From NCBI GenBank assembly GCA_009992215.1, contig JAACWB010000004.1:8006-72005 (forward strand): a stretch of DNA of 64,000 nucleotides. The letters are read 5' to 3'. Of this stretch, positions 8,764 through 52,110 are shown piece by piece. Position 1 is the stretch's first letter, and the number at the start of each line of letters is the position of its first letter. The DNA comes from an archaeon (GTDB taxonomy: Archaea; Nanobdellota; Nanobdellia; Pacearchaeales; GW2011-AR1). The translations under genes and the position numbers were made by a program. The notes beneath the pieces are model-generated. The model was not told the origin of the DNA. It made no database searches and worked only from the letters and a program-made list of their open reading frames with translations.

Positions 8764-9774
8764 TTGCAGTATAGTAATATGGAAAAGAGGAGTAAATTTA
8801 CTTTTATTGATTTATTTGCAGGAATTGGAGGTATTCGTTTAGCTTTTGAAAAAGCAGGTGGAAAATGCATCATGAGTTCTGAATGGGATGCTTATGCACA
8901 AAAAACATATTTAGAAAATTTTGGGGAAATTCCTTTGGGAGATATTTCAAAAATTAATGAAAAAGATATCCCAAACCATGACATATTGTGTGGAGGTTTT
9001 CCTTGCCAAGCTTTTTCTATTGCGGGAAAAAGAAAAGGATTTAATGATATCAGAGGCACTTTATTTTTTGAAGTTGCTAGAATAATTAAAGAAAAAAAGC
9101 CGAAGGCAATTTTTTTAGAAAATGTTAAGGGACTAATAAATCATGACAAAGGAAAAACTTTAGCTACAATTCTTGATGTTTTAAGAAATGAATTGGGATA
9201 TTATGTTACAGAGCCTCAAATTATGAATGCAAAAGATTTTGGATTAGCTCAAAATAGGGAAAGAGTTTTTATTGTTGGATTTAGAAAAGATTTGGGAATA
9301 AATTCTTTTTCTTATCCGAAGAAGAAAATTAAACCAGTTTCTTTTGAAGAAGTTATGGAAGAAAAACCAGTTTCTCCGAAATATTATTTGTCTACTGTTT
9401 ACTTAAATACATTAAAGAAACATAAGGATAGACATGTTAAAAAAGGTAATGGGTTTGGGTATCAAATAATTGATATAAAAGATATTGCTAATGCTATCGT
9501 AGTTGGGGGAATGGGGAGAGAAAGAAATTTAATAATTGATAAGAGACAAAAAAATTTAATTCCTATAACAAATATCAAAGGTTCCATAAATAAAAAAGGA
9601 ATTAGGAGAATGACCCCGAGGGAGTGGGCAAGATTACAAGGGTTTCCAGATTCTTTTAAAATTCCTGTTTCTGATGCTCAGGCCTATAAACAATTTGGAA
9701 ATTCTGTTGCAGTTTCAGCCATATATGCTACTGCGAAAGAGATAATTAAACATTTAGATAATAAATTAAAATGA
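8764..9774 (+). CDS. DNA (cytosine-5)-methyltransferase, M.HpaII-like
   Basis: 336 aa. Motif I FTFIDLFAGIGG, motif IV GGFPCQAFSIAGKRKG, motif VI IFLENVKGL, motif X QFGNSVAV. Overall collinear resemblance to the CCGG-specific M.HpaII group, judged from memory of that family. Confidence 0.9.
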   Translation: MQYSNMEKRSKFTFIDLFAGIGGIRLAFEKAGGKCIMSSEWDAYAQKTYLENFGEIPLGDISKINEKDIPNHDILCGGFPCQAFSIAGKRKGFNDIRGTLFFEVARIIKEKKPKAIFLENVKGLINHDKGKTLATILDVLRNELGYYVTEPQIMNAKDFGLAQNRERVFIVGFRKDLGINSFSYPKKKIKPVSFEEVMEEKPVSPKYYLSTVYLNTLKKHKDRHVKKGNGFGYQIIDIKDIANAIVVGGMGRERNLIIDKRQKNLIPITNIKGSINKKGIRRMTPREWARLQGFPDSFKIPVSDAQAYKQFGNSVAVSAIYATAKEIIKHLDNKLK

Positions 9775-23592: not shown

Positions 23593-23665
23593 TAGCGCTA
23601 CCCGGATTCGAACCGGGGTCACGGGATTCAGAGTCCCGTATCCTTGACCGCTAGACTATAGCGCT
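23593..23665 (-). tRNA. tRNA-Gln (anticodon CUG), intronless
   Basis: Minus-strand sequence AGCGCUA ... CGGGA-CUCUGAA-UCCCG ... CCCGG-UUCGAAU-CCGGG-UAGCGCU-A. Canonical cloverleaf with a palindromic acceptor stem. Confidence 0.85.
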
Positions 23666-23705
23666 GAACTAATTGAATTAAAGAAATTTATTTTTTATAC
23701 TTAAC

Positions 23706-23810
23706 GAATATGGATTCGAACCGAAGTCACGGCGAAAATCTTCTGAAAGTGTAATAAATGAACGAAATGAATTTAGAAATCTTTCACAGAATACGAACAG
23801 GGTAGCGCTA
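23706..23810 (+). repeat. tRNA-3'-end-mimic element copy 1 (T-arm-like segment, conserved hairpin, copy of tRNA-Gln 3' terminus)
   Basis: GGATTCGAACCGAAGTCACGG resembles the tRNA-Gln T-arm/variable region. A conserved hairpin has stem CTGAAAG/CTTTCA and a 31-nt loop. The element ends in GGGTAGCGCTA, identical to the last 11 nt of tRNA-Gln. Confidence 0.5.
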
Positions 23811-23820
23811 TTTAATAAAA

Positions 23821-24736: not shown

Positions 24737-24900
24737 GCCCCAGTAGTATAGTGGCCAAGTACGCCGCCCTCTCAAGAAAATTAGATTACATAATCTGAGA
24801 AGAGGTGATTCTAATCTTGGTGAAAGAGGTGAATCTAGCGTCTCAACGCAACCATTTTCAGAGTACGGCGGTAACCCGAGTTCAAATCTCGGCTGGGGCG
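24737..24900 (+). tRNA. tRNA-Glu (anticodon CUC) with a roughly 90-nt intron at the canonical 37/38 position
   Basis: Exon 1 is GCCCCAG ... CCGCC-CUCUCAA. The intron spans about 24776-24866. Exon 2 is GGCGG ... CCGAG-UUCAAAU-CUCGG-CUGGGGC-G. Confidence 0.75.
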
Positions 24901-24933
24901 TAAAATATTCTAATTGAGTTTTAACGAGGGGAA

Positions 24934-25025
24934 CCCGATTCAAATCCGAGCATTTCTGAAAGTGTAATAAATGAACGAAGTGAATTTATATCAGCTTTCA
25001 CGGAATGTGAGTTAGGGCTGTGGCG
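24934..25025 (+). repeat. tRNA-3'-end-mimic element copy 2 (degenerate tRNA-Glu T-arm, conserved hairpin, copy of tRNA-Glu 3' terminus)
   Basis: CCCGATTCAAATCCGAG matches the tRNA-Glu T-arm CCGAGTTCAAATCTCGG. The same hairpin (CTGAAAG-TGTAATAAATGAACGAAGTGAATTTA-...-CTTTCAC) is present. The element ends in GGGCTGTGGCG versus GGCTGGGGCG in the tRNA. Confidence 0.5.
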
Positions 25026-47798: not shown

Positions 47799-47871
47799 AA
47801 TAAATTCTAGCTAAAATTCTTTATAAAAGTTTGGCAATAGAAAATAAGTTTGTTATTTGTAGCATTAAAAG

Positions 47872-47937
47872 AATTGAATGTCAAAGTAATCGCCTGCGCC
47901 AATGGCTTGATTCGATTCAAAAAAGAAATGGTCCCGG
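47872..47937 (-). repeat. 66-bp perfect direct repeat (copy 1 of 2) comprising the tRNA-Val 3' terminus plus 53 bp of 3' flank
   Basis: AATTGAATGTCAAAGTAATCGCCTGCGCCAATGGCTTGATTCGATTCAAAAAAGAAATGGTCCCGG is identical to 48085-48150. Confidence 0.7.
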
Positions 47938-48020
47938 ACAACTTGCACTCCGTGAAATTTCTAAATTCATTTCATTCATTTATTGAAATTTCAGAAGATG
48001 CTCGGGAATCGAACGATTCC
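47929..48020 (-). repeat. tRNA-3'-end-mimic element copy 3 (T-arm-like palindrome, conserved hairpin, copy of tRNA-Val 3' terminus)
   Basis: Read on the minus strand: GGAATCGTTCGATTCC, then CGAGCAT, then the hairpin (CTGAAATTTC-AATAAATGAATGAAATGAATTTAG-AAATTTCAC), then CCGGGACCA. The loop matches copies 1 and 2 at about 90%. A further 19-nt copy of the tRNA-Val 3' end lies at 48029-48048. Confidence 0.5.
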
Positions 48021-48141
48021 TGCAAAATAAAGAAATGGTCCCGGCAGGACTCTACTCTTACCCCGCCATTCTAGCCTTCGGCATAATTGAATGTCAAAGT
48101 AATCGCCTGCGCCAATGGCTTGATTCGATTCAAAAAAGAAA

Positions 48142-48213
48142 TGGTCCCGGCAGGAATCGAACCTGCGCCATCTCGGTGTAAACGAGAGGGTCTACCATTA
48201 GCCTACGAGACCG
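48142..48213 (-). tRNA. tRNA-Val (anticodon UAC)
   Basis: Minus-strand sequence GGTCTCG-UA-...-UCUCG-UUUACAC-CGAGA-...-GCAGG-UUCGAUU-CCUGC-CGGGACC-A. The D-stem is slightly imperfect. This copy also carries repeat copy 2 (48085-48150) at its 3' end. Confidence 0.8.
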
Positions 48214-50364: not shown

Positions 50365-51108
50365 TTATCTTAATTGAAATTTAAAATCATTTTTACTCCA
50401 AAACCATAAGGGAGAATGCATATCTATTGGATTTATTTCTGTTCCATTTAATATTGCTCTCCATCTTTCAGAAAGTTTTTCTTTCGTTAAATTTTCTTTT
50501 TCATTTTCATTTATCACCCCAAGAATAACAGAACATTTTGTGATGTGAGTATCTGGAGCTATTTCTATAAATTCTGAATTTTTTAATTTAATACCTCCAT
50601 ATTTTTGAAGAATAAAAGACCAATAATTGAATATCTTTGGACCAGATAAATAAGGAAATCCCTTTTTGAACTTAATTTGAATAGTTTCTTTTAATTTCAA
50701 GAAATCATAATCTACAAATTCTAATAAATTACTAATACTCCCCCAATTATCATTTATTGTTTTGGAAATTTTAGACCAAGTGTTAATATGTTTATTTGGT
50801 TGTAATGCTATTTTATATTTGGTTAATAAATTTCTTAATTCATTTTCAGATAAATTAGAAGAATTATTTATATCAAAAACTTTTCGAGTTTGTTTATCAC
50901 TAAATGTTTTAAGGCAAGATTCCCATAAACTATAACTATCTCTTTGATAATTAAGACTCATTGGAAGTGTGAAATAAACTAATTTTGTTTCTTCATCTTT
51001 AAACCACGGATGAGAGTCTTCTGGCATTGTTGTTTGACCAATCTCCCCAGATTTAAATGCTTTAATTAGTAATCTGCAATTTTGAATTATTTTTTCTTTA
51101 TCTTCCAC
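50365..51108 (-). CDS. hypothetical protein
   Basis: 247-aa ORF. Confidence 0.35.
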   Translation of the reverse strand: MEDKEKIIQNCRLLIKAFKSGEIGQTTMPEDSHPWFKDEETKLVYFTLPMSLNYQRDSYSLWESCLKTFSDKQTRKVFDINNSSNLSENELRNLLTKYKIALQPNKHINTWSKISKTINDNWGSISNLLEFVDYDFLKLKETIQIKFKKGFPYLSGPKIFNYWSFILQKYGGIKLKNSEFIEIAPDTHITKCSVILGVINENEKENLTKEKLSERWRAILNGTEINPIDMHSPLWFWSKNDFKFQLR

Positions 51109-51224
51109 AATTATTTTTATTAATAATTATACTTAAATTTATTGTAATACATGCGCCAGACCGTGTAGCTCTCAACCTTGAAATGTTCTTTAAACTCATT
51201 TTATTCGTTTATTAGAAATTTCAA

Positions 51225-51400
51225 AGTTGTTCGTCGAACCCCCGGGTTCTCACCCCGAAAGAACTATGCGCCGACCGGGGCTCGGTTGGTGGCAAAACCA
51301 CACAACAAGCCAAAACATCGCGAATGTTTTGACTTAACCCGGGCTTCATGCTTCTTGCATGAAATCTATTTTGAATTTGACGGGTGAGAGCACCGAAGAA
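51225..51400 (-). ncRNA. GC-rich structured element immediately downstream of tRNA-Gly, ending in a 20-bp copy of the tRNA-Gly 3' terminus; candidate ncRNA or integration-site remnant
   Basis: Local GC about 50% against about 30% background. Hairpins GTTCG-T-CGAAC, CGGGG-TGAGAA-CCCG and GTGG-CAAAA-CCAC. TATGCGCCGACCGGGGCTCG at 51264-51283 is identical to 51431-51450 inside tRNA-Gly. The two ORFs predicted here are probably artefacts of the GC-rich sequence. Confidence 0.3.
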
Positions 51401-51432
51401 AAAATTATATTTTATTTCATAAAATATAATAT

Positions 51433-51505
51433 ATGCGCCGACCGGGGCTCGAACCCGGGTCACAACCTTGGCAAGGTCGCATTCTACCACTGAACTATCA
51501 GCGCG
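51433..51505 (-). tRNA. tRNA-Gly (anticodon GCC)
   Basis: Minus-strand sequence GCGCUGA-UA-GUUC-AGUGGUA-GAAU-G-CGACC-UUGCCAA-GGUUG-UGAC-CCGGG-UUCGAGC-CCCGG-UCGGCGC-A. Confidence 0.85.
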
Positions 51506-51537
51506 TAACATTTTGAGATATTCTGTCTTTATAAAAA

Positions 51538-52110
51538 TTATTCTTTAAATTTATTCCAAAAGTTATACAGTTCTTCATAATTAGAAAATTTGGCCAAGGG
51601 TTCAATCTTTACTGGCGTTAAAAAAGCTACTTCATTGTATGGTTTTTCTTTTATGGATTTATTACAATAGTCCATTTCATAAAAAAGTTCAGCATCTTGT
51701 TTACTATGTGTTGGATAAACCTCTTCAGGGGATAATTTTTGAAAATATTTTTGAAAGTCTTTTTCAAATTGTATTCCTTTTGGATATTTTTCTAACATTT
51801 CTTCTATAGAATTGAAAACAAATTGTTCGTGGTTCGGTAGCCAAACTCCTGAACGCATAAAACTCCAAGAATCTGTTGGAATTGCATAAATTGGTTTTTC
51901 TTTTGTTTGAAAAACAATTCCTTTGGAATGATATCCTTTCTCGTAACCTTCACAAAAATAACTGCAAAAAGTTAAAGACTTATTTTCAAAAGAAGGAATT
52001 TGTTTTTTAATTGGTAGATCGCCAACTTTTCCAATAACCTTTGTAGAAAATAATTTATTTACTTCTTCTTCACTTAATTCTGTGTGAACAAAAAAACCTT
52101 TCTTTAACAT
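51538..52110 (-). CDS. hypothetical protein
   Basis: 190-aa ORF. Confidence 0.35.
   Translation of the reverse strand: MLKKGFFVHTELSEEEVNKLFSTKVIGKVGDLPIKKQIPSFENKSLTFCSYFCEGYEKGYHSKGIVFQTKEKPIYAIPTDSWSFMRSGVWLPNHEQFVFNSIEEMLEKYPKGIQFEKDFQKYFQKLSPEEVYPTHSKQDAELFYEMDYCNKSIKEKPYNEVAFLTPVKIEPLAKFSNYEELYNFWNKFKE

Follow-up and report, generated by a model that had tools for sequence, protein, structure and literature searches.

The sequence that follows the tRNA-Gly(GCC) gene in a 64,000-nt stretch of archaeal DNA (contig JAACWB010000004.1; the whole stretch is referred to as the window) is a stack of two short units, each of which ends in a copy of the 3' end of this tRNA. On balance, such units are probably miniature non-autonomous elements, which insert into the segment of a tRNA gene between the T-loop and the 3' end and duplicate that segment. 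They seem to form a family of miniature hairpin units flanking tRNAs in DPANN archaea, apparently an undescribed one and a variant of tRNA-targeted mobile DNA, and no description of such units was found in the full-text literature searched. tRNA genes are classic landing pads of mobile DNA. The components of the Gly locus are listed below, where loci on other contigs are given as L numbers and R1 denotes the covariance model that was made from the family hairpin.

51434-51504, minus strand: intact tRNA-Gly(GCC) gene (ARAGORN; Rfam tRNA model, 64.6 bits).
51399-51430, minus strand: region with an AT-only perfect 12-bp palindrome, arms at 51404-51415 and 51419-51430 (inverted-repeat search and sequence).
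51285-51398, minus strand: proximal unit, the GC-rich block, making a 167-nt step with its repeat copy (from the sequence).
51265-51284, minus strand: repeat copy 2, exact, 20 nt, from tRNA position 56 to the discriminator plus 2 nt.
51164-51264, minus strand: distal unit of about 100 nt, of the 'GAGAACC...GGTTCGAC' type, resembling units in L040, L115 and L116.
51168-51233, minus strand: family hairpin, Gly copy, 66 nt (R1, 80.5 bits, E 4e-13).
51152-51163, minus strand: repeat copy 3, decayed, 12 nt, CGGTCTGGCGCA against CGGTCGGCGCA in the tRNA, with one inserted T.

The repeat TATGCGCCGACCGGGGCTCG has exactly two exact copies in the window, which read on the plus strand at 51265-51284 and 51432-51451 and are offset by 167 nt. 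No third match is present in the window even at 3 mismatches, and none of 100 shuffles matched. The initial annotation had reported this 20-bp direct repeat at the right distance of 167 bp, with coordinates one base low. Copy 1 (51432-51451) belongs to the gene itself and runs from T-loop position 56 to the discriminator, the last 18 nt of the tRNA, and on into 2 nt of trailer. The 3' end of tRNA-Gly is present three times in the same sense, namely in the intact gene, then as an exact proximal and then as a decayed distal copy. Between the gene and the first unit, a T6 run (51399-51404) comes after the AT palindrome when the minus strand is read and shares with it one position, the first base of the distal arm; from its sequence this arrangement looks like a terminator for the tRNA-Gly transcript. 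The distal unit opens with a leader and a small hairpin, GAACC-CGGG-GGTTC (51236-51249), after which come the long conserved hairpin and a tail, GAGAGCTACA. GC content is 50.6% over 51225-51400 compared to 29.1% across the window, in agreement with the roughly 50% and 30% first given, and the three short hairpins named with these values are all present in the sequence. The GC-rich stretches fall on tRNA-derived sequence and hairpin stems.

Within the proximal unit, a 9-nt copy of the T-stem/T-loop, GCCCGGGTT (51336-51344), matches ACCCGGGTT of the tRNA and lies 51 nt upstream of repeat copy 2, and the 51-nt insert between them (51285-51335) carries two hairpins and sits at T-loop position 55/56. 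As GCCCGGGTT stands just before this insert, repeat copy 2 is the 3' part of a tRNA-Gly fragment of ~30 nt that is split at T-loop 55/56. Only tRNA positions ~48 to 73 are represented in 51150-51433; the acceptor 5' strand, D arm and anticodon arm are absent. A further hairpin, TTCATGC-AAGAA-GCATGAA, is found at 51346-51364, and an inverted relic of a unit tail, GGTGCTCTCACCCG, at 51381-51394. The fold of the proximal unit (-46.1 kcal/mol, z = -3.5) is the sole hint of RNA structure there. The GC-rich block (51285-51400) had no Rfam match, and the unit had no homologue outside the same strain among the fetched loci, phage or plasmid records searched.

The block had been put forward either as an independent structured non-coding RNA or as an att core with a remnant. 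The latter idea survives in that the locus is best read as the product of att-like or target-duplicating insertion; as an RNA gene the block is without comparative support, and the structure that is conserved is that of the neighbouring hairpin, which the interval first described barely touches. The GCCCGGGTT piece, the decayed third copy CGGTCTGGCGCA and the family hairpin at Gly had all been missed. A covariance-model scan had also been proposed: with Rfam 15 only tRNAs reached the gathering score in the 64 kb, a permissive scan of 51050-51560 gave non-tRNA matches 28 to 82 bits below gathering, and a permissive scan of the Val locus (47850-48150) gave no match.

The same architecture, a tRNA plus a same-sense partial duplicate of its 3' end, recurs at Gln, Glu, Val and Gly. 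ARAGORN with introns calls five tRNAs in the window (Gln, Glu, Val, Gly and Tyr), and all but Tyr have a unit and a 3'-end copy. Both points had been recognised in the initial annotation, which had however taken the internal sequence at Gly to be different, when the same hairpin family occurs at all four loci. The loop motif of this hairpin, AATAAAYGAAYGAARTGARTTTA, has four occurrences in the window, where 0.05 would be expected, all of them beside a tRNA, and R1 matches exactly those four hairpins in the 64 kb.

23593-23811: Gln locus, with tRNA-Gln(CUG) at 23593-23665 on the minus strand and a divergent unit on the plus strand.
23712-23732: antisense T-arm copy of the Gln unit.
23733-23798, plus strand: family hairpin of the Gln unit, loop motif at 23753-23775.
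23800-23811: 12-nt tRNA 3'-end copy of the Gln unit.
24737-25025, plus strand: Glu locus, with tRNA-Glu(CUC) and its 91-nt intron at 24737-24900.
24947-25012, plus strand: family hairpin of the Glu locus, loop motif at 24966-24988.
25016-25025: decayed 3'-end copy of the Glu locus, GGCTGTGGCG, with one mismatch to GGCTGGGGCG of the tRNA.
47872-48212, minus strand: whole Val locus.
48142-48212, minus strand: tRNA-Val(UAC).
48053-48141, minus strand: Val unit with a ...CCGAAGG... loop.
48026-48052, minus strand: region with a tRNA-Val 3'-end copy.
47941-48003, minus strand: family hairpin of the Val locus, loop motif at 47962-47984, with a further 3'-end copy after the hairpin unit.
47872-47937 and 48085-48150, minus strand: perfect 66-nt direct repeat, which brackets 147 nt and includes the first 57 nt of the first Val unit.
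51191-51213, minus strand: loop motif of the Gly hairpin.

Over 35 nt, the window's Gln and Glu hairpins are 97% identical, with shared derived features that are missing from the tRNA-Glu unit of L047, which points to spread or gene conversion inside the genome.

The hairpin was followed further by scanning genome and metagenome contigs for the loop motif, and 121 loci were fetched and scored with R1. A coherent set was obtained from Woesearchaeota, Pacearchaeota, Nanoarchaeota and unclassified archaeal metagenome-assembled genomes (MAGs), in addition to many chance matches in AT-rich bacteria. Among the 121 loci R1 scores contigs of DPANN archaea only, leaves the bacterial and viral chance matches to the loop motif unscored, and adds four diverged copies to those found by the motif; 23 distinct hairpin copies are known from DPANN archaeal contigs. 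A called tRNA gene lies within 600 nt of 22 of the 23 hairpin matches listed; no tRNA was called near the remaining one, where an apparent tRNA-Leu 3' end can be seen by eye ~150 nt upstream. The host tRNAs number at least ten (Gly, Glu-CUC, Glu-UUC, Gln, Val, Thr, Ile, Tyr, Leu and Asn), with Ser as a divergent addition.

A direct copy of the 3' end of the same tRNA follows about 14 of the hairpins at a distance of 1-4 nt, with lengths from 8 to more than 40 nt, single units having copies of 8-28 nt and the repeats above 40 nt being those of tandem arrays (the window Val locus, L040 and L123). Different tRNAs can have almost the same scaffold behind them: in L119 (Leu), L123 (Gln) and L115 (Asn) it ends in ...GAGCA and is followed by a host-identical copy that starts from tRNA position 62. 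The start of the copy goes with the type of unit: position 62 after ...GAGCA, 64/65 after ...GTGCGAGTTAG, and 54-57 both in the Gly proximal unit and at the Thr loci. Immediately ahead of the copy, the sequence resembles a diverged T-arm when aligned by eye. The gradient from exact proximal to decayed distal copies also occurs at L047, and one mismatch is present in the only copy that follows the hairpin of L119. A related apical module on other lower stems adjoins tRNAs in other Woesearchaeota and Nanoarchaeota (L031, L084).

The Gly copy of the hairpin has a 12-bp lower stem, a 4-bp middle stem and a 5-bp upper stem (TAAAC/GTTTA), and its 11-nt loop, GAAUAAAAUGA, is closed by 5'-GA...GA-3'. 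Over the 23 copies, 91.9% of the cells are paired and 11 of the 21 pairs have changed on both sides. When the partner was slid by 1-3 columns pairing fell to 57% or less, none of 500 shuffles reached the observed values, and an independent MAFFT alignment agrees on the covariation. Compensatory changes can be read directly, for example CUGAAAU/AUUUCAcG to CCAAAAU/AUUUUGcG (L045) or to UUAAAAU/AUUUUAcA (L052), and UAAAU/AUUUA to UAAAC/GUUUA in the Gly copy. Furthermore, folding is better for the sense than for the antisense strand in all 19 copies compared (19/19), pair 9-87 is U.G in 15 of the 23 copies, and R1 scores the Gly hairpin at 80.5 bits in sense against 14.9 in antisense. Selection therefore appears to act on the hairpin as a single strand, either RNA or single-stranded DNA (ssDNA). 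The triplet in the 5' arm that looks like an anticodon (CUG, UUG, CCA, UUA) is merely part of the covarying stem.

In every copy read by eye the loop sits on a 5-bp stem and has GA at both its start and its end. This holds even for four copies whose loop interiors are unrelated, and in the 19 copies matching the loop motif 7 nt separate the two GA dinucleotides. By this signature the cap resembles an L7Ae-type kink-loop (K-loop) and may bind L7Ae; its arrangement is that of the non-bulged (D-box-like) and bulged (C-box-like) kink-turn (K-turn) strands of L7Ae ligands, as named in PMC5539422. The K-loops of the C'/D' motif of archaeal C/D small RNAs (sRNAs) and of the H/ACA apical loop are likewise stems closed by 5'-(U/C)GA ... 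(R)UGA-3', and the likeness is one of sequence pattern alone. In contrast to those RNAs, the units have no terminal C/D boxes, guide regions, pseudouridylation pocket or ACA box. A C/D box sRNA was rejected as only the apical motif is C'/D'-like, the flanking 12 nt being paired and covarying, and an H/ACA sRNA as the internal loops are of 1-3 nt, leaving no pocket, and the stem is not followed by a conserved ANA. Watson-Crick covariation at pairs 12-84 and 13-83, for instance in L045, led to the rejection of a K-turn in the lower stem (CUGA against CACGGA). A CGAGCA-like direct repeat can be seen by eye on both sides of most hairpins (L121, L040, L119 and window 51231-51236 and 51165-51171), and could either be a relic of a TTCGAGC T-loop or come from a small target duplication of the palindrome.

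The arrays are polymorphic between assemblies. Three contigs from other samples (L003, L004 and L005), otherwise identical where aligned, are without exactly 213 bp at Val, which is one period of the two-unit array, and a single 66-nt repeat is left; one of these contigs was assembled at k = 141, longer than the 66-nt repeat. Similarly, L040:6023-6500 and L116 (reverse strand) carry the same tRNA-Gln and are one two-unit (alpha/beta) period apart: one assembly has 3 full units, the other 5, and both have an additional truncated unit. In these two arrays, family-loop units and units with the CCGAAGG loop alternate. All three multi-unit arrays finish in a 3'-truncated unit. Several same-species contigs end inside arrays. 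The tails of L132:1373-1473 and L134:921-928 depart from the window in or next to the tRNA-Gly array and are probably assembly chimeras at tRNA-like sequence.

No gene was called in the Gly interval on the seven independent contigs that reach it, so that an overlapping protein-coding gene, which was initially named as what might account for the GC enrichment, is not seen. The neighbours of the Gly locus encode, by Pfam, an AGOG-like glycosylase, a nucleotidyltransferase, a DEAD helicase, an EamA protein and a TatD protein. These and 30 further open reading frames (ORFs) of the window are housekeeping genes or have no Pfam match, and Pfam showed no recombinase, transposase or reverse transcriptase among the neighbours and 36 of the larger ORFs of the window. 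The 83 ORFs at 17 unit loci are likewise housekeeping genes or without a Pfam match, and gave no integrase, transposase or reverse transcriptase among the families matched by at least two ORFs, as read from the best 25 of 93 families. BLAST of the Gly locus against phage and plasmid records returned chance AT-rich matches or none, and of 14 loop-motif matches in viral contigs none was in a hairpin context. Paralogy of the two 190-aa ORFs that flank the Gly locus was considered and they are unrelated. When relatives were compared through orthologues of the downstream AGOG-like gene, as had been suggested, synteny with tRNA-Gly was not kept at 72-86% protein identity.

The explanation favoured here is that each unit would land in the tRNA segment that extends from the T-loop/T-stem to a few bases past the 3' end, and that insertion would duplicate this segment, so that the gene stays intact and a same-sense 3'-end copy is left at the far side. 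New units would enter beside the gene, and older copies would be shifted downstream and decay. The copies are polar, decaying and matched to their host tRNA, which argues for repeated insertion at the tRNA end, and their arrangement suggests that the duplicates arise by insertion. tRNA fragments are well known to originate from such insertion (PMC9897764). The units, of ~95-170 nt, would be specific to tRNA genes of DPANN archaea, with a covarying hairpin, which would act as a single strand, as their constant part, and this hairpin may be the handle for whatever machinery moves or processes the unit. The arrays would later expand and contract by recombination between repeats. Duplicative insertion, similar to target-site duplication, is modestly preferred over classical integrase exchange and might proceed by staggered cleavage or by priming from an annealed single strand that ends in a tRNA tag. 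It would explain why one scaffold serves ten tRNA species, why there is no full-size relative and why the hairpin is single-stranded, and it has no known enzyme here. A more specific and rather speculative form of this is a tRNA-homing element with a single-stranded intermediate, in which an L7Ae-capped hairpin, as RNA or ssDNA, would be guided or primed by its tRNA 3' tag and copied in; copying-in from the annealed tag would duplicate the annealed segment, in a manner like that of short interspersed nuclear elements or guide RNAs, with no known enzyme partner.

Several observations weigh against insertion by miniature elements. No mobilising enzyme was identified, and the length of the duplicate, 7-28 nt for single units, fits no known transposase ruler. 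The proximal Gly unit has neither the family hairpin nor homologues, and is placed in the family by architecture alone. At Val the short allele keeps the 5' half of a unit and no clean empty site was found, so this variant looks like a deletion between the 66-nt repeats and not like an excision; at Gly, Gln and Glu no indel variant occurs among same-species contigs. The hairpin is antisense to the tRNA in Saliniplasma, at the window Gln locus, in L017 and in L122, and co-transcription with the tRNA can therefore not be general. Finally, the Thr loci of three Woesearchaeota (L052, L094 and L112) keep the hairpin through compensatory changes, and such upkeep could reflect a host-level function instead of selfish mobility.

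A different origin, which we judge unlikely, is that the units are decayed scars of integrase-mediated integration, in which viruses or plasmids of ordinary size entered the tRNA T-loop or 3' end by tyrosine recombination and later lost their interiors, so that attL-attR pairs are left with only attP arms between them; the hairpin, like the T-arm-like pieces, would then have been a binding site in the arm or core. CIME-like (cis-mobilisable element) remnants and tandem accretion, which such scars resemble, are described at bacterial tDNAs. The repeats begin in the T-loop/T-stem and run past the tRNA end, starts that match the sublocation classes of tRNA integration sites reportedly defined by Williams in 2002; the unit tails are like diverged T-arms, as expected for tRNA-mimicking attP, and a size of ~100-170 nt is within the range of attP regions. 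Partial tRNA copies are an established outcome of mobile-element insertion into tRNA genes, and those left by integrated elements are well documented in archaea (PMC9897764). However, one scaffold stands behind at least ten tRNA species with both copies host-identical, when exchange would import the 3' end of the previous host, and clean loss of the whole interior would be needed independently at dozens of loci. There is no integrase nearby and no full-size relative in viral contigs, phage or plasmid records, and strand-specific G.U pairs and compensatory changes are not needed by a double-stranded protein-binding site. Also improbable, and nonetheless a serious rival, is that the hairpins are small structured RNA genes of the host that are linked to tRNAs, such as a K-loop RNA, bound by L7Ae, that is released from the pre-tRNA or lies next to it, the 3'-end copies being by-products of local duplication or signals for processing or termination. 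The covariation and strand-specific wobble pairs, the GA...GA apical loop in every copy read by eye, the retention of the hairpin with compensatory changes behind tRNA-Thr in three Woesearchaeota, and hairpins that stay intact as the adjacent tRNA copies decay all favour such a role. Against it, there is no Rfam family, the orientation relative to the tRNA is not fixed, and the number of copies per tRNA lies anywhere between 0 and at least 5 and differs between strains, which is unusual for a housekeeping RNA. The T6 run and AT hairpin lie between tRNA-Gly and the first unit, and type-1 units start ~13-27 nt past the tRNA end in the leaders read, too close for a separate promoter to fit in. 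The terminal C/D boxes and the ACA box are absent, and the covariation at 12-84 and 13-83 contradicts a lower-stem K-turn.

Two further explanations concern the Gly locus itself. It is very improbable that the pieces are those of a disrupted second tRNA-Gly gene (split, permuted or with several introns) which are joined as RNA, as in the examples known from Nanoarchaeum and the Thermoproteales. Such a gene would account for the tRNA-derived sequence on both sides of the 51-nt T-loop insert, long tRNA introns do occur in this genome, and tRNA-Gly(UCC) is absent from the window; the interruption of the T-loop, in an archaeon with long canonical introns, is likewise what disrupted archaeal tRNAs show. 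However, the pieces cover only positions ~48 to 73 and give no full cloverleaf, the locus has a 3' fragment only, with an intact gene of the same identity directly upstream, and the 3' strand of the fragment is identical to that of this gene. Neither ARAGORN with introns nor Rfam found a second tRNA, no bulge-helix-bulge was seen at 51335/51336 or 51284/51285 by inspection and minimum-energy fold, with no formal search, and the same architecture stands behind 10 tRNA identities. A T-loop-intron, split or permuted tRNA-Gly was rejected accordingly, there being no 5' half, no bulge-helix-bulge and no such call from ARAGORN. That the repeat is due to chance and the GC content to a protein-coding gene is barely credible. 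Two ORFs do overlap the locus, one of 96 aa on the minus strand (51221-51511) and one of 69 aa with a TTG start on the plus strand (51178-51387), but the former contains the whole tRNA, the shuffles never matched the repeat, no gene is called on the independent contigs, and the GC-rich stretches are tRNA-derived sequence and hairpin stems.

Compared to known systems, insertion by miniature elements would share with tRNA islands and proviruses of tyrosine recombinases the intact tRNA and the displaced same-sense 3' copy that extends from the T-loop/T-stem past the gene end, as well as the downstream stacking with decayed older copies. Direct repeats bracket the insert and the tRNA is intact at Gly and at the sister loci. 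Such islands differ in measuring kilobases, against 95-170 nt here with no integrase or other ORF, and in lacking what is seen here, one scaffold for at least ten tRNA species, host-identical duplicates and a covarying single-strand hairpin. No recombinase, and no recombinase-bearing full-size relative, was found in the interval, its neighbours or the viral, phage and plasmid records; the indels seen are whole array periods that leave a truncated unit, with no variant at Gly. MITEs (miniature transposable elements with inverted repeats), palindrome-associated transposable elements (PATEs, derived from IS200/IS605) and CIMEs are similarly tiny, non-coding, multi-copy, patchy and variable in copy number, with a palindromic or hairpin core, and like the units are presumably mobilised in trans. 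In contrast to these, the units are tied to tRNA gene ends, and their duplication is long, variable and tRNA-derived, not a fixed 2-10 bp. The hairpin arms could be read as inverted repeats, with CGAGCA-like flanks by eye around most hairpins; they covary and drift by compensatory change, whereas terminal inverted repeats, if conserved, would be expected to keep their sequence, and no parent element is known for the units. Some casposons use tRNA 3' ends, and Cas1-family integration is polar at a fixed leader and duplicates a long target segment. The units would share with casposon and CRISPR spacer integration this polar insertion beside a fixed 'leader' with a long target duplication at each event; they differ in that no Cas1 or casposase is seen here, the duplicate varies in length, there are no terminal inverted repeats and the cassette is conserved and structured.

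If non-coding cassettes of ~100 nt can settle in most of the tRNA genes that a reduced DPANN genome has and leave these genes unbroken, they would constitute a hidden mobilome of small-genome archaea that annotation misses. Their fragments would be miscalled as tRNA pseudogenes or would break assemblies, as here. The hairpin provides a defined marker that can be searched with R1 and makes the mechanism testable, and the arrays could serve as natural strain markers for population studies. The elements may also bear on the origin of T-loop insertions, introns and split tRNA genes in archaea.

Related arrangements were also observed. In Saliniplasma (Thermoplasmatota; L018, L042, L065, L069 and L089) the same 21-nt apical module on a different lower stem forms arrays by tRNA-Val and tRNA-Ala; the modules are antisense to the tRNA and short 3'-end copies of GAGCCCA type lie between the units. 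At L122:8600-8870 an antisense hairpin is located inside a degenerate tRNA-Gly copy beside an intact tRNA-Gly(GCC), with more partial antisense copies nearby. The loop motif was also found in a multi-copy repeat of Lachnospiraceae MAGs, TATAGTAAACGAACAAAGTGAGTTTACTTTGCGCC..., and in a stretch that is identical across several Bacteroidota contigs and one Limnohabitans contig, neither of which is scored by R1 (bacterial loci L019, L024, L029, L030, L055, L060, L062, L068, L076, L082, L092; L014, L023, L034, L041, L070, L088).

Other tRNA-related features of the window include the 91-nt intron of tRNA-Glu(CUC), which holds an internal 14-nt direct repeat, AAGAGGTGAWTCTA; similarly long tRNA-Glu introns can be seen by eye in other DPANN contigs. 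The tRNA-Tyr gene (62670-62811) has a 67-nt intron in the window and one of 138 nt in L027 (loci listed for tRNA-Glu and tRNA-Tyr introns: L047, L045, L040 and L027). A tRNA-like RNA at 11648-11716 (plus strand) has an acceptor stem and a T-arm (GGGTTCAATTCCC) with a reduced D region, and no hairpin unit follows it. It was missed by ARAGORN and the Rfam tRNA model, and gives weak matches to mascRNA (MALAT1-associated small cytoplasmic RNA; 29 bits) and to the tRNA-like 3' part of transfer-messenger RNA. The organism is an uncultured archaeon, in keeping with its long tRNA introns, the editing domain of an archaeal threonyl-tRNA synthetase, a thermosome and a DTD2-type deacylase. At 8779-10841 (plus strand) its small genome also encodes an adjacent C-5 cytosine methylase and HpaII-type restriction endonuclease, which form a complete type II restriction-modification pair.

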